Positions 2,478-23,747 of a stretch of 43,583 bases of DNA are shown here, one piece after another; position 1 is the first letter of the stretch; each line of letters opens with the position of its first letter. The DNA is taken from contig CAMAWO010000003.1 in assembly GCA_945861925.1 (NCBI GenBank), positions 1-43,583 on the forward strand, given 5' to 3'. Made by a program: the position numbers and the translations under genes. The stretch comes from Bifidobacterium breve. GTDB lineage: Bacteria > Actinomycetota > Actinomycetes > S36-B12. Under the pieces are notes generated by a model that was given only the letters and a program-made list of their open reading frames with translations, did not search any database and had not been told where the DNA came from.

Positions 2478-3287
2478 GTGCATCGACTCCTCCAGCGACT
2501 GCGCGCCGCGCCCCGGCGTCTCGTGGTCGTCGTCCTCGTCGCGAGTGTAGGGATCGTTGGGATTCCGGTGGCAGCCACGGGTACCTCGTTACTGGTCCGC
2601 CTCGCGAGCACGGGTGCGCAGGCAGCCTCCTACACGCCAATGGCTGAGCTCGCCAAGCGCCGCGACCCTCGGTGGCCAAACCGCATCGGCTGGCAGGGCT
2701 GCCCGGCCCCGATCTGGCCCTCGAACGTGGCCGAGGGCGCGCCGGGCAACGGCAGGAGGGTCCTCGTCGTGGGGGATTCCCTCGTTCGCGAGTCGAGGAC
2801 CCGCCTCATGACCCTGCTTCGCGACAGTGGCTGGGCGCCCACTGTTCGATGCTGGGGTGGTAGGCGGCTGGACTGGGTAAGCGACCAGATCAGCCGTGCC
2901 AAGAAGATCGATCAGCTCCCGAGCACCGTCATCGTGGTGGTCGGAACGAATGACATGCGCTGGGTCTCCAGGCCGGTCACGAAGGCGCGGATGCGATCAC
3001 TCGTCGAGCAGATTGGTTCGGACCGCGAGATCCTTTGGGTCAATACCTATGCATCCGGCGCAGACCGGTTCACTCGGCCGAAGGAGCGTTGGTTCAATCG
3101 TCAGCTGCGAAGGTTGGCGCGACAGCATGACAACGTCACGATTGTCGATTGGTCGTCTCAGGCACGGACACGCGGTGTTCGATTTGCAGATGGCCTTCAC
3201 TATCGCCCAAAGGGTCGACGGTTGTTGGCGGAGGTCATCGCAGATGACCTTGACCGAATCCAGAGCACGAGCGACGGCCGAGGTTAA
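2478..3287 (+). CDS. Membrane-anchored SGNH/GDSL-type hydrolase
   Basis: VGDS, GTND and DGLH blocks; N-terminal hydrophobic segment. Confidence 0.8.
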   Translation: MHRLLQRLRAAPRRLVVVVLVASVGIVGIPVAATGTSLLVRLASTGAQAASYTPMAELAKRRDPRWPNRIGWQGCPAPIWPSNVAEGAPGNGRRVLVVGDSLVRESRTRLMTLLRDSGWAPTVRCWGGRRLDWVSDQISRAKKIDQLPSTVIVVVGTNDMRWVSRPVTKARMRSLVEQIGSDREILWVNTYASGADRFTRPKERWFNRQLRRLARQHDNVTIVDWSSQARTRGVRFADGLHYRPKGRRLLAEVIADDLDRIQSTSDGRG

Positions 3288-3299
3288 GCCCCCGGTCAG
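3171..3299 (+). repeat. Direct repeat copy 1 (SGNH 3' end plus tRNA acceptor-end remnant AGCCCCCGGTCAG)
   Basis: Matches 3979-4053 apart from an internal deletion in copy 2. Confidence 0.85.
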
Positions 3300-3455
3300 A
3301 TTTGTCGATGGGGCCCGAAGCACGTGGCGAATTGAGCCGTCATGAGTGCTGGGTGTGTCGGGTCGAACTGGGTTGCCAATGAGTGTGAGGGGAGTGCCCT
3401 CTTGCCCTGTGGGGGTCCTGCCCGTAGAGTGAAGAGGGACGAAAGGACGCGACCC

Positions 3456-3686
3456 ATGACCTCAGCTCGCCTTGTGACAGCAGATCAGCGCGGCCGCATG
3501 ACCGTCGGTCTTGCAGAAAGGTCTTACCTCGTTCACGAGGAACCTGACGGCACGGTCGTTCTCGAGCCTGCGGTCGTCATCACAGCACTTGAGCGCAGGT
3601 TCCTCGAGAACGCCGCACTTCAGGCAAGTATCGAGCACGCCCGCCAGCATCCTGAGGGACGCGTGAGCCGCCGGCCTCGCCCGTGA
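3456..3686 (+). CDS. Putative antitoxin, AbrB/MazE-like
   Basis: GAAAGG RBS; VTADQRGRMTV pattern; GTGA overlap with the downstream toxin-like ORF. Confidence 0.6.
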   Translation: MTSARLVTADQRGRMTVGLAERSYLVHEEPDGTVVLEPAVVITALERRFLENAALQASIEHARQHPEGRVSRRPRP

Positions 3687-3943
3687 AGGTAGAGCTCGAT
3701 CCTGCTGCCGCAGCACAGTTGGACGCGCTCTATGGCCGTGACCCGAACGGTGGAGCTCGAATCGATGAATGCCTCGACTAGATCGAAGTGGAACCTATGG
3801 ACCCCCGCGCGTATCGGCGCATGTTCAGTGGTGGTGTCCGCGCGATCACACGAGACGTCAACGGCGAACCGTGGATCGTCCTGTGGGAACCAGATGGAGA
3901 CGTAGCTGTCATCCGCGCTGTCATGCCCGCCGATCAGCTGTGA
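3683..3943 (+). pseudogene. RelE/ParE-like toxin with in-frame TAG at 3779-3781
   Basis: Reads MKVELDPAAAAQLDALYGRDPNGGARIDECLD*IEVEPMDPRAYRRMFSGGVRAITRDVNGEPWIVLWEPDGDVAVIRAV...; size and pattern resemble RelE/ParE; translationally coupled to the antitoxin. Confidence 0.6.
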
Positions 3944-3978
3944 CCGCTCAGCCCTGCAAGCACCCGCCCAAGCGTACT

Positions 3979-4053
3979 CGCGGTGTTCGATTCGCAGATG
4001 ATCTCAACCGAGCTCAGAACACGAGCGACGGCCGAGGTTGAGCCCCCGGTCAG
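3979..4053 (+). repeat. Direct repeat copy 2: deleted, diverged copy of the SGNH 3' end fused to the tRNA-Thr fragment
   Basis: CGCGGTGTTCGATT..GCAGATG joined directly to ..CACGAGCGACGGCCGAGGTT-AGCCCCCGGTCAG. Confidence 0.85.
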
Positions 4054-4087
4054 GATTGAACTGACGACCTACCGCCAACAAGGCGGA
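4038..4087 (-). pseudogene. 3' half of a tRNA-Thr (att-like remnant)
   Basis: Minus strand reads TCCGC-CTTGTTG-GCGGT-AGGTC-GTCAG-TTCAATC-CTGAC-CGGGGGC-T: anticodon arm, T-arm and acceptor strand, with no D-arm or 5' strand. Confidence 0.85.
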
Positions 4088-4102
4088 TGACAACCGATGT
4101 TG

Positions 4103-4178
4103 AGTTAGGAAATCTGTGAAGGGTAACTCACTTTCTAGGCATGTTTCCTAACGAATATTGCCCAACTATTTCCTAACT
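4103..4178. promoter_or_regulatory. AT-rich att/promoter region with repeated GTTAGGAAA motif (candidate integrase arm sites)
   Basis: AGTTAGGAAAT 4103-4113, TTTCCTAAC 4144-4152, ATTTCCTAACT 4168-4178; GAGTTAGG again at 5641-5648. Confidence 0.5.
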
Positions 4179-4204
4179 ATCACCAGACCTCGTATGGTGA
4201 CCGG

Positions 4205-5641
4205 ATGAGGGGACTGCCTGGCGGTGCGGAACCAACGCCCTACAGGCACGCTGATGGCACGCAGCGGACCGATGCGAAGGGTGTGCCGGGATGGCGGCTG
4301 AGGTGGACTCCGATGGGCGGTGGCAGCCAGCGGTCACGGACGTTTTACGGCACTGAAGTCGCCGCTGCTCAGGAACTTTCACGCCTGACAGCAAAACGTG
4401 CCGTTGTTGCGGTGAGTCGGCGCAGGGTGACGCTCTATGACTACTTGGGTGCCTGGCAGGAGGAATACCGCCAGCGGTGTGAGCGCATGACGATGGCACG
4501 GTCGTCGTGGAAGGAGCACGAGTCAAACGTCCGACTGTATCTGCGCCCCGCATTGGAGGATTCTGAGTGGAAGGACAGGCGGCTCGGTTCCTTCGAGGCG
4601 GATGAACTCGTTGATCTCGCGAATGGCTTCAGGCTGGCAGGTGGTGGGGAACCCTCCAATTCGATGCGCCGGTCTGTGCGAAAGACCCTCGTCATGTCGT
4701 TAGGCCAGGCCGTTGAGGACGGCATCATCTCTACGAATCCGTTGAACGGCATGGCTGACTGGTCTATCGGTCAGCCGACGGTGTTCGTTCCAGACCTCGT
4801 CCAATTGCACAAGGTGGCAGCAATCATGGGGTCGATGCCCTCGCTGGTGACTGCGACAGAGTCGGTGCAGGCGAAGAAGGCTCGATTGAAGGCCAGACGT
4901 GAAGGCGAGCCGGCGAGGATGGTGTCTCGCGTACGTGAGGGTGCGGCGCGTCCGTGGCTGGAATGGATGCTGCTTGTAACGGGTTGGACGGGGCTGCGGA
5001 TCGGCGAACTTCTCGGCTTGCGGCTGGAAGATGTGGATTCAAACAACCGATTCTTGCGGGTGCGACAGTCGGCGACGGTGAGCGGCGGGCGTTACCGGGA
5101 AGGTGACACGAAGTCGAAGGCAGGTGTGAGGATCGTGCCGATCCTCCCCGACGCCGAATCTGCGATTAGCGCGTTGGAGGACAGGGCGTATGCGATGCCA
5201 TCGAAGCCGACGCACCTGTTCGCAGGCGGGGGGAGGCGTGCATCTCGGCTTGCCGCCGATGGAAGCCGCAAGACGGTGAGCCGGCCGGCCGCCATCGGCT
5301 ACTCGGAGATATCTCGGGAACTGCGAGAGGCATGCCGCATCGCAGTTGAGCAGGGCGTTATCCCCGAGCCATTCACCCTGCATGCTCTTCGCCACACGTT
5401 CTGCTCAGCCTTGTTGTCGGCAGGTGTCTCCGAGGAAAAGGTGTCGGTATGGGCTGGTCATTCAAGTCCGATAGTGACCCGGAATGTTTACGCGGTTGCG
5501 ATGCCCGGCAACATGGAAACGGTCGCGGCGGAGGTGGGAGCGCAGGTGGCTGACTACTTCGGACGTCAGCGAACGCCGTACGGAGTTCGAGTCGCCAAAC
5601 TGGAAGAGATGCGCAAGCGTGGACCCGAGGGCGTCAAGTAG
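4205..5641 (+). CDS. Tyrosine recombinase/integrase, phage/ICE type with N-terminal arm-binding region
   Basis: TGLRIGELLGL (box I R), TKSKAGVR (K), HALRH, WAGHS..VTRNVY (catalytic Y). Confidence 0.95.
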   Translation: MRGLPGGAEPTPYRHADGTQRTDAKGVPGWRLRWTPMGGGSQRSRTFYGTEVAAAQELSRLTAKRAVVAVSRRRVTLYDYLGAWQEEYRQRCERMTMARSSWKEHESNVRLYLRPALEDSEWKDRRLGSFEADELVDLANGFRLAGGGEPSNSMRRSVRKTLVMSLGQAVEDGIISTNPLNGMADWSIGQPTVFVPDLVQLHKVAAIMGSMPSLVTATESVQAKKARLKARREGEPARMVSRVREGAARPWLEWMLLVTGWTGLRIGELLGLRLEDVDSNNRFLRVRQSATVSGGRYREGDTKSKAGVRIVPILPDAESAISALEDRAYAMPSKPTHLFAGGGRRASRLAADGSRKTVSRPAAIGYSEISRELREACRIAVEQGVIPEPFTLHALRHTFCSALLSAGVSEEKVSVWAGHSSPIVTRNVYAVAMPGNMETVAAEVGAQVADYFGRQRTPYGVRVAKLEEMRKRGPEGVK

Positions 5642-5655
5642 AGTTAGGCATCACC

Positions 5656-5732
5656 GCCCCTGTAACTCAGTTGGCCAGAGTGCCGCACTTGTAATGCGGG
5701 AGTCGACGGTTCGAATCCGTCCGGGGGCTCCA
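5656..5732 (+). tRNA. tRNA-Thr(TGT) with encoded CCA
   Basis: GCCCCTG/CGGGGGC acceptor; ACTC/GAGT D-stem; CCGCA-CTTGTAA-TGCGG anticodon arm; GACGG-TTCGAAT-CCGTC T-arm. Confidence 0.95.
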
Positions 5733-5909
5733 ATTCAAGAAAGGCGATTGCGGTCTCACTCGAGCAATCCCATGAAGCGGTCTCACCGGTAGGCGCGTAA
5801 GTGGCGGACGAATCCGAGTCCTCGGCTCCGAGCAGCCTTCCGTTCGCGTTCAGGGTGGCGAGGGTCGGGCGACGATTTTGGCTCGGCTGTCCGGTGTCCG
5901 TCGACTGAT

Positions 5910-6491
5910 TCACGCGGCTACTTCGGCGAGGTAGCGGTTGAGGGTGCGGCCGCTCACACCGACTCGTGCCGCCGCTGCGGGCACGGACATCCCCTCAGTC
6001 TCGATATAGGCACGGGCTCGGGCCACCATCGTGGAAGTAAGGACGCGGGCGCGCCCCCCGATTGCTGACTTGCCCTTCGCCTTCTTCGCCTCGGCAACCC
6101 GATTCATCATCAAGGTGCGTTCATAACTCGCCGCTGCAGAAAGCACGGCTATGACCAGCATTGACGAGGCAGAACCATCGAGGGTGACCCCGGCCTCCGT
6201 GAGCGACCTGAATCGGACGCCACTCTCCTGAAGGCGGGTGAGTGTGGAAATGACATCGGGGAGGCTCCGGCCCCAGCGGTCGAGGCGAACGACGACGACC
6301 TCGATGTGCTCACCCGCTGCGGCGGCGGTGATGGCCTCCTCGACGAGGGACACGAACACGGCGCGGTCGGATTTCGCCCCCGACCCGATCTCGACGCGGA
6401 TGTCGATAATGCCTTCGGCGGTCAGGAGTGCGTGCTGTGTCGCGAGGTCTTGTGACCCGCTGCTGACTCGTGCATAGGCGATTCGACGCAT
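5910..6491 (-). CDS. Serine recombinase (resolvase/invertase family) with C-terminal HTH
   Basis: YARVSS, RLDRWGRS, YER, C-terminal VGVSGRTLNRYL. Confidence 0.93.
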   Translation of the reverse strand: MRRIAYARVSSGSQDLATQHALLTAEGIIDIRVEIGSGAKSDRAVFVSLVEEAITAAAAGEHIEVVVVRLDRWGRSLPDVISTLTRLQESGVRFRSLTEAGVTLDGSASSMLVIAVLSAAASYERTLMMNRVAEAKKAKGKSAIGGRARVLTSTMVARARAYIETEGMSVPAAAARVGVSGRTLNRYLAEVAA

Positions 6492-6553
6492 TTCTGGGTT
6501 CCCCGTTTCGTCTCGTGTTTCGTCCCTCTGGAAACAGTGTCGTTCAGGGGTCT

Positions 6554-6575
6554 GACATAACTCGTGAGTTACGTC
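6554..6575. promoter_or_regulatory. Palindrome upstream of the resolvase, candidate res subsite
   Basis: GACATAACTC-GT-GAGTTACGTC (9/10 match, 2-bp spacer). Confidence 0.5.
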
Positions 6576-6914
6576 CTCGGTGTTCGACAGAGGTGTGCCG
6601 TGTGACAGCCCTGGAGGCGATGCACGTGGGCGGGCACCTGATGACTTTGTGGTGGTGGGTGTCGCGTCCTGCGGCGGCCGATCTGCACGCAGTCGCCATG
6701 CCGTTTCTCAAGCGGAGGCGTATTGTCGGGGTCCTTGCTGCCGTGGCTGTGCCGCCTCTGTCTCCCCCGTCAGTGGCTGGACTCCCGGCAGCGACATTGT
6801 TTGTGCCGGCTTTCTCCTGCGTAGCGTTCATTGCTGGCATTCGGACTGAACAGCGGACACTGGCCGGTAGGTTCGCACGAGGACCGTCAATGGCCGAGGA
6901 GTACGGGGGAGCGC

Positions 6915-7301
6915 ATGAGTAAGAAGGCTTTTGGCGGTATGACACTGAAGTTGGCGGGTGTCCTGGCAGTGACGGGGATGCTGCTTGCGGGATGCGCGAC
7001 CGGCAGCACTGAGGGCGATGTGCAGGCTCCAGTTCCGGCTGCGGACACGAACGCCGGCACCACGACGACTGGCACCGGCGGACAACTGATTCAGATTCAG
7101 TCTGACAATGTTGCTGCTGCGGGCTACGACGCTGCGTCCCGCACGATGCTCGTCGAGTTCGATGACGGGTCGTTGTATGAGTACGCGCCGGTGCCGGTAT
7201 CAGTTTGGATGGATTTCGTTGCGGCGCAGCCGCATCCGTGGAGCCGAGTTGGCAATCCGGTTCTGGTCCAGGGCGGGGTCCCGTATCGGAAAGTCCGCTG
7301 A
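6915..7301 (+). CDS. Lipoprotein with C-terminal KTSC domain
   Basis: Lipobox LAGC; IQSDNVAAAGYDAASRTMLVEFDDGSLYEYAPVP matches the KTSC pattern. Confidence 0.8.
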   Translation: MSKKAFGGMTLKLAGVLAVTGMLLAGCATGSTEGDVQAPVPAADTNAGTTTTGTGGQLIQIQSDNVAAAGYDAASRTMLVEFDDGSLYEYAPVPVSVWMDFVAAQPHPWSRVGNPVLVQGGVPYRKVR

Positions 7302-7440
7302 CTTTGTGTTCCGGGGGTGGTTAGGCACTCTTCTGGGTGCCTCTTTTTGGTCGGCGGGGGAGCGCGGGGTGCGCTCGTTGACTTTCCCTTCTCAGCCTGT
7401 CGAGTGTCTGCTTCCTGAAATGCGCCCCTCCTGAAGTCCA

Positions 7441-7686
7441 CTGGGCGTGCTCTGGGCGACTGAGCGTGCTCCCTTGTTGGCAGCGAGTCCTTGCTGGCTG
7501 CTCATTTCATTGAAGTCGTCGTGCGCACTTCAGCGAACGAGGCCGGCCTAGAGACGGCTTTCGGTCGTAGTCCGACCATTGGTAGTAGGGGAGTTTCCTT
7601 CGTCATCTGAGGACACTCGGGCGCACTCGTTGACCGGGTTCCGGGCCCGCATGTCCCCCATGTAGGCGAGCATGCGGGCACGCCAG
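7441..7686. repeat. Structured non-coding repeat, copy A (~245 nt)
   Basis: Colinear with 8766-9011; ends are complementary (GGCGTGC/GCACGCC). Confidence 0.85.
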
Positions 7687-7691
7687 ATGCC

Positions 7692-8357
7692 TCATGCGGC
7701 GGCCGACCGCCGCGCTGCAGTCGTAGGACCACTCATGGCGTACAGAAAGTTCATGCTTACTCCGGATGGGGACGAAGGCATGACTGTCTCCCTCGGCGCG
7801 GTCGGCGGCTGCGCGGACGTCGTCGGATTCGATGTCGCCGCCGCACTGTCCTGCTTGCCGTTCGACAGCATCACTGCGGTCATCCCCTCCTCGCCCGGAG
7901 TGAGCATGATCGTTCCGGTTGCACCCACCCCGTACACGACGCCTTTGGGATTCATGACCATCAGGACTCGCGTCGGAGCCGTCCAGTTGGACTCGGTGAA
8001 CTTTCCTTCTTTAGCCGCTTTGCACTCGGTCGCTTGCACCGCGCAGTCCACCCACTGCTCCCACGCAACCGCAGCCGACCCCAACACCTTGCGAACGGTC
8101 AGCAGATGCTGCCAACTGACCGGTTGGCCGTCCTGGAATCCCGTCAACGACGTCCACCACGTACCTTTCATATCCGTCATCGAATCAATCGGCCCGGACG
8201 TCGGTGCGGCCACCGCTGACCCCGCCCCACCGACCGACAACGACACCGCGAACAGCGCCGCACCGACGACCGCCACCCCTCGACGTGCGGACCTACTCAC
8301 GTTCAAGCCTGTTCCCATAGCCGTACTCCGCTCCGTAACGATGAGGATCCGACTCAT
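7692..8357 (-). CDS. Secreted hypothetical protein (start may be ATG 8318)
   Basis: Signal peptide ending AVAA; Trp-rich body, one Cys pair; no family recognised. Confidence 0.65.
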   Translation of the reverse strand: MSRILIVTERSTAMGTGLNVSRSARRGVAVVGAALFAVSLSVGGAGSAVAAPTSGPIDSMTDMKGTWWTSLTGFQDGQPVSWQHLLTVRKVLGSAAVAWEQWVDCAVQATECKAAKEGKFTESNWTAPTRVLMVMNPKGVVYGVGATGTIMLTPGEEGMTAVMLSNGKQDSAAATSNPTTSAQPPTAPRETVMPSSPSGVSMNFLYAMSGPTTAARRSAAA

Positions 8358-8765: not shown

Positions 8766-9011
8766 CTGGCGTGCTTTCGGCGACCAGCGTGCTCCTTGTT
8801 GACGGCGAGTCCGTCCGTCCTGGCAGTTGGGTTCATTGAAGTCGTCGAGCGCACTTCAGCGAACTAGGTCGGCCTAGAGACTTCTTTCGGACGTAGTCCC
8901 ACCATTGGTGGCAGGGGAGTTTCCTTCGTCGTCTGAGGACGCAGGGCGCACTCGCTGGCTGGTCTCCTTGGCACGCTCGTCGCCCACGTAGACGAGCATG
9001 CAGGCACGCCC
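8766..9011. repeat. Structured non-coding repeat, copy B
   Basis: Shares TTCATTGAAGTCGTCG.GCGCACTTCAGCGAAC, AGGGGAGTTTCCTTCGTC.TCTGAGGAC and GAGCATGC.GGCACGCC with copy A. Confidence 0.85.
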
Positions 9012-9029
9012 GTCGCCCCCGTCAACGAG

Positions 9030-9267
9030 TAGGCAGCCGGCTCCGGCGACTCGGTTCGCCTCTTTCAGGGTTGACCTCGTGCTGGCTGCTCAGTTCATTG
9101 CAGCCGACTAGCGACCACGTTCGCCTAGTAGACGGAACTCCGCCGGCTAGAGCGCACTGGCGATCTCGGTAGACGGGTCGTCACGAGGACTCGGCGCTCT
9201 TGGTAGGCAAGGAGGCTCGAGCGAACATGTCGCCCCCGTAGGCGAAAGCGAGAAGGCATGCCCGTCA
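9030..9267. repeat. Structured non-coding repeat, divergent copy C
   Basis: TGCTGGCTGCTCA.TTCATTG, GAGGAC.CGGCGC, CATGTC.CCC..GTAGGCGA and GGCA.GCCCGTC blocks in the same order as A/B. Confidence 0.65.
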
Positions 9268-22526: not shown

Positions 22527-23747
22527 TTAGGTGATTGGCTGATCGACACTGCTGGTTGACGTCGAACTCCGGCGTGACTTGAGTCGGTCGACCGCATCTT
22601 TCACGACGAAGCCACTTACGGCGCCGATGATGGCGAAGGGTGCGATGGCTGTACCGGCGACACCGACGAGGAGCATCGCCAGGAGTGCCGACGTGAATGG
22701 AAGCCGTGTCATGACGGTGGCAGTGGCAGCGATGCCAACCGCCGCCATCGCACTGATGGACAGGTCGGTGAGGACGAGAGCGGCGAGGCCTCCACAGGCC
22801 ACTCCGATGAAGGTTGCCGGGAAGATCGGCCCGCCACGGAAGCCAGAGCCGAGTGCGACCCCGTAAACGATGAGCTTGCCGACGATGATGACAAGGAGCG
22901 TGGTGATACTCGTCTCGGTGATGAGTGACGCCATGCCCGTCTGGCCGGAGAACAGGATCTGGTCAACCTCGATGTTGAATCAGGTCACCGCCGATACCGC
23001 GACTGCCGAGGTGATGATCGCGGCGAGCATGATCATGGCGGCGGGTCGCCGCCGGCTAAGAAGTGACGCTCGCTCGCCGATCTCGCGCGCAATGCAGGTG
23101 CCGATACTCACGACGATAGCTAGGACGAGCCCGGCGAAGAGATCACCCGGCTGAACGGATGGATAGTCCGGGAGCCCGGGGACGTTGAGCCCGTGCGTGC
23201 CGATGCCTGACCATGCGCCCCACCCGATCTGCGTGAGATAACCGGCACCGAGGGCAACGAAGGCTGGTAGCAGGATCACCTTTGGTGCGATGCCGCCAAG
23301 GAACATGACCATGCTCAGGACATTCGGCTCGGCCCTGCGCATGAGGAGAGCTGCCGCCGTGGATCCGACGACGATGAGCGGCCCTTCGGGGCCGAGGGAG
23401 GCGCCGAAGATGAGGGTCGCGGTTGCGGCGAGGAGGACCGATGGCACGGTCCGTACCGGATCGTTGAAGTGAAAGCCAGTGAGCGGGCTCTCGCCGGTGT
23501 GCCCGGGGAGGCGCTGGGCAAGGATGATGAGGAGGGCTGAAAGCACAAGGCCGCCGGCGATCCACCACTCAGGCGCCGTCTCCCAGCCGAAGCTGTTCGG
23601 CAGGTCGGTGAAGAAGAGGACCTGCCCCTCCTCGATGAGTCAGAGGAAGAGAGTGGCAACGCTGGCGCAGAGAAGGCCGATGACGAGCGCGAGGGCCAGC
23701 GCCTTGATCGGCAGGGACTCCGGGGGCTCACCTGGAATTGCGTTCAT
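22527..23747 (-). pseudogene. ClC/EriC chloride channel pseudogene
   Basis: GASLGPEGP and GFRGGPIFP motifs; in-frame TGA at 23640-23642 and 22980-22982; apparent internal deletion at LGGIA|PKVILL. Confidence 0.85.

Follow-up and report, generated by a model that had tools for sequence, protein, structure and literature searches.

Work on cultured actinobacteriophages led in 2024 to the description of tRNA-dependent lysogeny, in which a tyrosine integrase joins attP to an attB site within a single-copy host tRNA gene; with a common core of only 8–17 bp, the tRNA gene is not rebuilt. The phage makes up for the loss with a tRNA of the same anticodon, without which lysogens are not viable, and in Gaia this tRNA is encoded downstream of int (Guerrero-Bustamante & Hatfull, mBio 2024; PMC10865867). 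By that account, the phages concerned are Fionnbharth (K4), cluster L, Gaia (X) and others, the tRNA-dependent cases in its Table 2 are Lys-TTT, Ile2-CAT and Leu-CAA, and its authors asked how widespread the arrangement is. The same paper mentions Lj965, a Lactobacillus johnsonii prophage, which reportedly does not rebuild the tRNA at a junction and encodes a cognate tRNA. Also known are the classical genomic islands of the Islander type, which target tRNA and tmRNA genes (PMC4383910), and a case involving phage-related sequences in Sinorhizobium meliloti, described as the replacement of a host tRNA gene by one like those of other taxa after site-specific integration, which its authors link to tRNA-dependent lysogeny (PMC11476347). 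Here we describe a locus of an uncultured freshwater actinobacterium (contig CAMAWO010000003.1 of assembly GCA_945861925.1) in which the 3' part of a tRNA-Thr(UGU) gene lies broken upstream of a tyrosine integrase gene (int), and a complete tRNA-Thr(UGU) gene of a different type follows int. The DNA analysed, referred to as the window, is the entire 43.6-kb contig. On balance, the best explanation is a small integrative element of the tRNA-dependent lysogeny kind, which would have inserted itself into the native tRNA gene and replaced it with its own.

Throughout, N denotes the native, family-wide tRNA-Thr(UGU), E1 the element-borne tRNA-Thr(UGU) of the window, and E2 and E3 further foreign types. 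The assembly to which the window belongs (G000) comprises 334 contigs and 3.67 Mb, with a completeness of 87.6% and a contamination of 6.2%; G001 to G007 are same-genus genomes, and numbers with the prefix L are fetched loci or contigs. The coordinates of the features are collected in Table 1.

The native gene is broken at its anticodon arm. On the minus strand, 4041–4075 is identical to N positions 73–39, and identity is found again at 4078–4086 (positions 36–28); positions 37–38 in between read TG, not AA. Compared with the intact N of G001, the window agrees in 55 of 57 bases (E 1.9e-21), a match far beyond chance, and the two genomes have the downstream flank in common, at 94% over 121 nucleotides (nt; 3969–4089). 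A DNA search matched the 50-nt fragment at 87–94% identity in 10 of 30 relatives, and four fetched loci (G001, G010, G013 and G016) hold an intact 73-nt N that carries the sequence of the fragment. On these comparisons, the fragment is the 3' part of the native tRNA-Thr(UGU) gene of the host, displaced from the rest, and attB overlaps that gene. The break lies at positions 38/39. On its int side, positions 25–38 are N-like with three changes (27, 37 and 38) and the likeness stops beyond 25; this DNA only imitates the anticodon stem-loop, in the manner of an attP core. The stretch from the junction to int contains three exact copies of TTTCCTAAC within 74 nt, with no other exact copy in the 43.6 kb, and they are putative arm-type integrase binding sites.

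E1 begins 14 nt after the int stop codon (TAG, 5639–5641). It has the 3' acceptor strand CGGGGGC plus T in common with the N fragment, and it differs from N in the T arm (GACGG/CCGTC vs GTCAG/CTGAC), the variable loop and the D arm. E1 is identical to N at 61 of 74 bases and to the tRNA of another actinobacterial metagenome-assembled genome (MAG; L044) at 72 of 74; the neighbours of the L044 gene are ordinary and include no integrase relative. Species genomes scanned for the exact pattern yielded the E family of tRNA-Thr(UGU) in 11 loci, 10 of them from MAGs labelled Nanopelagicales, Actinomycetota or actinobacterium. The E type is thus native to other lineages of the same order, N being the type of the window's family. 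The E-type pattern also had four matches in viral contigs, all with a GC content of 35–38% and three longer than 350 kb; they contained neither an integrase relative nor an N fragment and were set aside as unrelated.

Within the assembly, which is only 87.6% complete, E1 is the sole credible Thr(UGU) gene among the 42–47 tRNAs found. ARAGORN made a second Thr(tgt) call of 95 nt (G000 C50, 5357–5451), which had no Rfam match at E values up to 10 and was absent from the 42 tRNAs found by Infernal; lacking this support, it is a false positive, which if accepted would make the number of Thr(UGU) genes seem to be two. Under standard decoding rules, the reading of ACA codons needs a UGU anticodon. 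Since ACA is in use in eight host genes of the window (18 of their 235 Thr codons), this anticodon is needed here. An integrase-mediated insertion very probably split the native gene, with E1 as its functional replacement.

Much of this had been anticipated by the first-pass annotation, made from the letters of the window. The minus-strand tRNA-Thr 3' part upstream of int that it had noticed is N, and the complete plus-strand tRNA-Thr(TGT) with encoded CCA, the differing T stem and variable loop and the common acceptor strand are all present in the sequences as it read them. The loop that it gave for the fragment, CTTGTTG, is indeed that of the window; the native loop is CTTGTAA, with the two changed bases at the junction. 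Its proposal that the element supplies a replacement tRNA agrees with E1 being a foreign-type gene with the same anticodon and with the genome-wide count of Thr(UGU) genes.

Table 1. Positions of the features described in the text, in nt of the window
Feature	Position	Strand	Remarks
Older N remnant, last 13 nt (T-stem 3' strand, acceptor 3' strand, discriminator)	3287–3299	−	Adjoins stop of GDSL-lipase gene (2478–3287)
0.67 kb between the two repeats	3305–3972	+	Antitoxin-like open reading frame (ORF) 3342–3686 (phrog_19414, E 1.6e-4), then short ORF
Lipase-gene 3' end, second, shortened copy	3973–4040	+	Downstream flank of N, as in G001; C-terminal peptides alike, 18 amino acids (aa) missing
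N 3' part	4041–4089	−	att junction of P-O-B' type, broken at anticodon arm
TTTCCTAAC repeats, three exact copies	4104–4112 (minus), 4144–4152 (plus), 4169–4177 (plus)		Putative arm-type integrase sites
Tyrosine integrase, 478 aa	4205–5641	+	PF00589 2e-15; phrog_1 7.7e-39
TAGAGT, −10-like hexamer	5639–5644	+	Overlaps int stop codon, 11 nt before E1
E1, complete tRNA-Thr(UGU) with encoded CCA	5656–5732	+	67 bits; sole tRNA of the window by ARAGORN and Rfam
Hairpin GATTGC...GCAATC	5741–5781		Just 3' of E1; homology with the G005 int-tRNA remnant ends at 5753
Small serine recombinase, resolvase/invertase type, 193 aa, C-terminal helix-turn-helix	5910–6491	−	PF00239 1.5e-21; phrog_125 'DNA invertase' 8.3e-32

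The pairing of an integrase gene with a tRNA-Thr(UGU), an adjacency that the first-pass annotation had proposed to look for among integrase homologues, is not confined to the window. On a single strand of a metagenome contig (L054, 1–2335; 50% GC), a gene for a 444-aa integrase is followed, 14 nt after its stop codon, by an E1-like tRNA and then, across a 160-nt spacer, by positions 27–73 of an N-type tRNA. The spacer is AT-rich with short repeats, and the contig ends 77 nt past the N-type tRNA. This integrase is collinear with that of the window at 30% identity (E 3e-54), and its tRNA agrees with E1 in 76 of 78 bases. A serine recombinase gene, whose product is 34% identical to that of the window (PF00239, 7.6e-37), adjoins the integrase gene divergently. 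The att junction lies on the tRNA side in L054 and on the int side in the window. In addition, G005 contains a remnant (C164) consisting of the last 47 int codons (77% identical in aa) and of E1, separated by the same 14 nt as in the window; DNA identity is 90% over window positions 5504–5753, and the remainder of int is gone. With a cognate tRNA placed 14 nt behind two integrases that are 30% identical, each beside a truncated N-type tRNA, chance cargo is hard to accept, and a cognate element tRNA is present in the window, in L054 and in the G005 remnant. An element of 1.65 kb made up of int and its tRNA was considered and not adopted, because in L054 the 650 nt upstream of int contain no N 5' half and the place is taken by a serine recombinase gene.

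The int stop codon lies inside a −10-like hexamer, so that the tRNA may have its own promoter, as against being read through from int. The geometry between TAGAGT and E1 is the same as that of TAGACT before N in G001 and of TAAAGT before E2 and the L054 tRNAs. In all three int-tRNA cases (window, G005 and L054), the stop codon falls within such a hexamer (TAGAGT or TAAAGT), at the distance from the tRNA seen in native tRNA-Thr genes. A consensus scan for promoters and terminators over 3900–6000 found none. The hairpin just downstream of E1 may serve as a terminator, or it may be what decay has left of a second junction. A stretch resembling the N 5' half within it (5741–5765, minus strand; N positions 10–34) had a score of 20, which is reached by chance about once per 19 kb of one strand, and was not regarded as significant alone.

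Eight same-genus genomes were searched with N, which is whole in G001 alone. Four genomes (G000, G002, G004 and G005) contain only the N 3' part, in every case broken at 38/39 and adjoining the lipase-gene 3' end, and each of the four has an E-type tRNA-Thr(UGU). The element-side sequences at the junction differ between the window, G002 and G004/G005. Neither a whole N nor its 3' fragment was found in G003, G006 and G007, which are 63%, 92% and 61% complete. In G002, G004 and G005, a complete E2 with its own −10-like box and hairpin lies 65–85 nt from the N fragment on the same strand (65 nt in G002; L012, 832–1020), with no integrase gene near E2. In G007, a third type, E3, lies close to the syntenic DUF4333 gene.

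The anticodon arm has a second copy in G002, 5.9 kb away and in direct orientation (L012, 6743–6770). This copy corresponds to N positions 18–45 with two changes and then runs into unrelated DNA; since what follows position 45 is not tRNA sequence, that end rebuilds no tRNA. There is no clear N 5' half on the left side of this copy, which may be a junction between tandem elements. The 5.9-kb segment itself encodes CSD, DUF4396 and DUF1996 proteins and a repetitive 439-aa ORF, and contains no integrase gene.

The fate of N at integration is less direct to establish. Neither ARAGORN nor Rfam detected a second minus-strand tRNA in the window, as the first-pass annotation had also found; the N 5' half is absent from the whole assembly, where the best matches are 20-nt D-arm likenesses to two tRNA-Thr(CGT) genes, and no direct repeat of the E1 3' end was found. 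A regenerated target tRNA, which marks the other end of a classical island, was thus detected neither in the window nor in the assembly. Several observations nevertheless weigh against a tRNA-dependent element. The second junction (N 5' half, core and element) is absent from the window and the assembly, so that the non-reconstruction of N is deduced and not seen as such. Missing here are about 4 kb of host genes, DUF2332 and its neighbours, which lie between N and Cyt-b5 in G001 and beside Cyt-b5 in G002; a rebuilt tRNA could thus have been lost in a later deletion. With its 14 nt of N-like sequence (25–38), the element-side core looks closer to the long imperfect cores of attP sites that rebuild their tRNA, described as the Boilgate type in PMC10865867, than to a core of 10 bp. 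Distant homologues of the integrase (29–42% identical) face the 3' end of a tRNA-Val or tRNA-Leu in the classical layout at three of four loci. No phage, conjugation or excisionase genes were recognised among the 43 window ORFs by Pfam or among nine ORFs compared with PHROGs and NCBIfam, and 50,697 phage records contained no homologue of the integrase. Finally, the assembly is both incomplete and contaminated, and a repeat-rich stretch at 6.0–8.9 kb, multi-copy in this genome and its relatives and patchily covered by short Logan contigs, makes the right side of the contig less certain, with a misjoin being possible.

Some of these observations would fit a classical tRNA-targeting island that rebuilt N at integration and carried E1 as cargo, followed by a deletion that took the rebuilt tRNA, the far part of the element and about 4 kb of host DNA and was tolerated thanks to E1. 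The missing host genes beside Cyt-b5, the mosaic of multi-copy DNA on the right side, the 14-nt imitation of N and the tRNA-Val and tRNA-Leu layouts all speak for such a history. However, it leaves unexplained the exact 14-nt placement of a cognate tRNA behind two integrases 30% identical to each other, the four genus genomes that have the 3' part of N and lack its 5' half, and the failure of the far repeat in G002 to enter the T arm. We consider it an unlikely history, although one with a real share of the probability, and we lean towards an attP that does not rebuild its target over a later loss of N. The first-pass annotation had inferred that the element destroyed the host tRNA. That N is disrupted and its 5' half gone is correct; that integration rather than a later deletion was the cause is less certain, given the missing second junction and host genes. 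Its premise that tRNA-targeting integrases normally rebuild their target is outdated, as non-rebuilding integrases with a compensating tRNA are described in PMC10865867. Matches on contigs C192 and C230 to the DNA just upstream of N in G001, at first taken for the missing host flank, proved to be copies of an insertion sequence encoding a DDE transposase and are therefore uninformative on the junction.

The join of fragment, integrase gene and tRNA in the assembly is real. Two Logan contigs from lake-water metagenomes span it without a single difference (X1, 4046–5979; X2, 4078–6002), and in a second study (X5) one contig covers 4046–5589 with 15 differences while an overlapping one (5572–6419) crosses the tRNA. 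X1 may be the sample that yielded the window; the depth of its integrase contig (7.9) resembles that of the flanks (9.0 and 9.7), and the element is therefore near-fixed there. An intact or rebuilt N might lie in the unassembled 12% of the genome or past a misjoin at 6–9 kb, in which case the fragment would be an ordinary att repeat and E1 an extra copy. The 87.6% completeness in 334 contigs, the short Logan contigs between 6.0 and 8.9 kb and the lack of several other common isoacceptors (e.g. Asp and Phe) among the tRNAs found would agree with such a gap. Nevertheless, an N 3' fragment together with an E-type tRNA and no N 5' half is repeated in G002 (97% complete, 60 contigs) and in G005 (92% complete), and a rebuilt N would leave the conserved linkage of int and tRNA unexplained, making a gap of this kind improbable.

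Other peculiarities of the assembly were noted. Contigs C282 and C326 of G000 are short and carry near-identical tRNA-Thr(CGT) genes, and a mixture of strains is possible. In the mosaic between the serine recombinase gene and the first host gene, a direct repeat of about 205 nt (7487–7691 and 8813–9017; 79–87% identity, spacing 1326 nt) has a partial third copy at 9080–9113. A 221-aa minus-strand ORF (7692–8357) had no match in Pfam, NCBIfam or PHROG; part of it (7786–8275) recurs at 70–83% in several relatives and, within the assembly, on at least five further contigs, so that it is either a gene in several copies or some kind of mobile DNA.

The small serine recombinase gene lies just after E1, convergent with int and the tRNA, and probably belongs to the element. 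The stretch encoding it and a KTSC-domain ORF (6005–7675) recurs at 83% DNA identity in G006 (C215) without int or E1; the G006 recombinase is 96% identical to that of the window over residues 1–162 and then diverges. An invertase-type gene in this place (phrog_125) is one reason to consider a cassette that flips, or was inverted, between tRNA-like inverted sequences, perhaps by the action of this recombinase, as the first-pass annotation had suggested as an alternative. The two tRNA 3' parts are inverted relative to each other (29 nt, 76% complementary), and the int-tRNA pair of L054 has the opposite orientation relative to the N fragment. However, the supposed arms belong to different genes, with distinct T arms, variable loops and D arms, and their resemblance is generic tRNA likeness only; a search for further flanking inverted repeats found none. 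No foldable anticodon stem would result from a crossover between the two arms, and a single inversion cannot interconvert the layouts of the window and L054. The contigs of four sequencing runs contained no inversion, excision or strand-changing joint at the element, which is weak evidence, as contigs drop rare variants. Taken together, an invertible or inverted cassette is very improbable, and that suggestion finds no support.

The integrase of the proposed element represents a rare lineage. Homology at the N terminus with P0002, P0003 and the L054 integrase supports position 4205 as its start, and its nearest solved structure is 6en0, 'Int protein' (1.3e-11). Among 8,000 candidates scored from a protein database of 5.8 billion sequences, four relatives (P0002–P0005) showed 63–65% identity; these and the relatives of the L054-type integrase (P0007–P0010) lie on short contigs. 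Among 390 genomes of the order, the G005 remnant was the only close match besides the window (threshold 1e-12). A tblastn search of the phage records gave no match at E 1e-8 and showed no relatedness to the Fionnbharth/LeBron or Gaia/Omega phamilies, a tblastn search of plasmids gave no match, and alignment-based searches of genome contigs, metagenome contigs and viral contigs (IMG/VR) gave none either. Phage structural, lysis and repressor genes were likewise not found among the 43 window ORFs or the nine ORFs scanned against PHROGs and NCBIfam. With neither phage genes nor a phage relative of the integrase, the element cannot be filed as a phage. Inside int, a core-like sequence CAGCCTTGTTGTCGG (5398–5425; 28 nt, 79%) is inverted relative to the junction core; because it falls within the conserved catalytic HxxRH...LL box, it is probably due to chance.

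The same tRNA gene has an older history of insertion. The lipase 3' end followed by a tRNA 3' end is present twice (3165–3304 and 3973–4058), with a direct repeat of 85% identity (3238–3304 and 3992–4058), and the region of the older remnant matches N over 24 nt. The left copy is broken in the T loop and therefore records a different, earlier insertion; with breaks at two sublocations, at least two different elements have used this tRNA gene. The 0.67 kb between the two repeats is probably the leftover or scar of the earlier, T-loop-targeting element, and part of it (3397–3943) recurs at about 74% on other contigs of the assembly and in other genomes.

Under the tRNA-dependent explanation, the conserved core of the element would consist of the tyrosine integrase and its own tRNA-Thr(UGU), probably with the neighbouring serine recombinase. 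The integrase would insert the element into the anticodon arm of the host's single native N gene, and the int-side junction would retain the host N 3' part, preceded by element DNA that imitates N and by the three arm-type repeats. N would stay unrestored, the attP core presumably being too short to rebuild it, and E1, if expressed and charged, would read the ACA codons in place of N. Cells that lost the element, or at the least its tRNA, should then die, and the element tRNA would become indispensable and outlive the integrase, as the G005 remnant and the E2 loci may illustrate. More tentatively, and with well under even confidence, a compact, self-addicting module that is not a phage (integrase, cognate tRNA with a promoter over the int stop codon, and serine recombinase) might permanently swap the essential tRNA-Thr(UGU) gene of freshwater actinobacteria, its tRNA staying after the decay of the integrase gene as the only copy of the host, as in G002, G004 and G005. 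If this were true, such modules would drive the turnover of an otherwise ultra-conserved gene across a genus.

Two further observations on the window are unrelated to these elements or remote from them. A 596-aa protein encoded at 159–1949 contains an ice-binding-like domain (PF11999) and a putative Ig domain, which is noteworthy in an organism from a lake, and has no connection with the integrase finding. Two adjacent minus-strand ORFs (22527–22934 and 22980–23546) each match part of the Voltage_CLC family and are probably the parts of a single chloride-channel gene that a frameshift or stop codon has divided.

More generally, the locus suggests a break-and-replace logic for tRNA genes in uncultured lake actinobacteria, involving a different tRNA, an unrelated integrase lineage and apparently no phage. 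In the relatives, the native gene has been lost for good and a foreign tRNA has become fixed, whether or not traces of the integrase persist. This would offer a concrete route for the horizontal replacement of core tRNA genes, in which a mobile element or its leftover is made indispensable. Such loci also matter for island-finding software, which relies on a regenerated tRNA and a displaced fragment to define the ends of an island.

Compared with the known systems, the locus resembles the Islander-type islands, as these are described in PMC4383910, in having a tyrosine integrase gene beside an att junction, a displaced 3' tRNA fragment at one end and a crossover in the anticodon-arm region; unlike them, it lacks a regenerated target tRNA and carries a whole foreign isoacceptor gene. 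It has an invertase-like gene, but differs from a Hin/Gin-type invertible segment in that the sole flanking inverted repeat is a tRNA likeness of 76%. The S. meliloti case, as described in that paper, likewise has a host tRNA gene replaced by a foreign one and differs in phylum, integrases and tRNAs, and Lj965, as mentioned in PMC10865867, is a prophage of a Firmicute.

The closest resemblance is to tRNA-dependent lysogeny. Both involve a tyrosine integrase with arm-type sites (putative here), an attB in an actinobacterial host tRNA gene that is not intact afterwards, and an element-borne tRNA with the same anticodon, located downstream of int as in Gaia. In contrast to the described phages, the target here is tRNA-Thr(UGU) and the host an uncultured freshwater actinobacterium; phage genes are not recognisable, and the integrase has no phage homologue in the records searched. 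The tRNA follows the int stop codon by 14 nt, a small serine recombinase gene lies alongside, and the short core is deduced with the second junction unseen. Among the titles listed on tRNA-dependent lysogeny, none concerned tRNA-Thr or freshwater actinobacteria. The element works like tRNA-dependent lysogeny outside the described phage groups, with a new target, a new host and a new integrase lineage.

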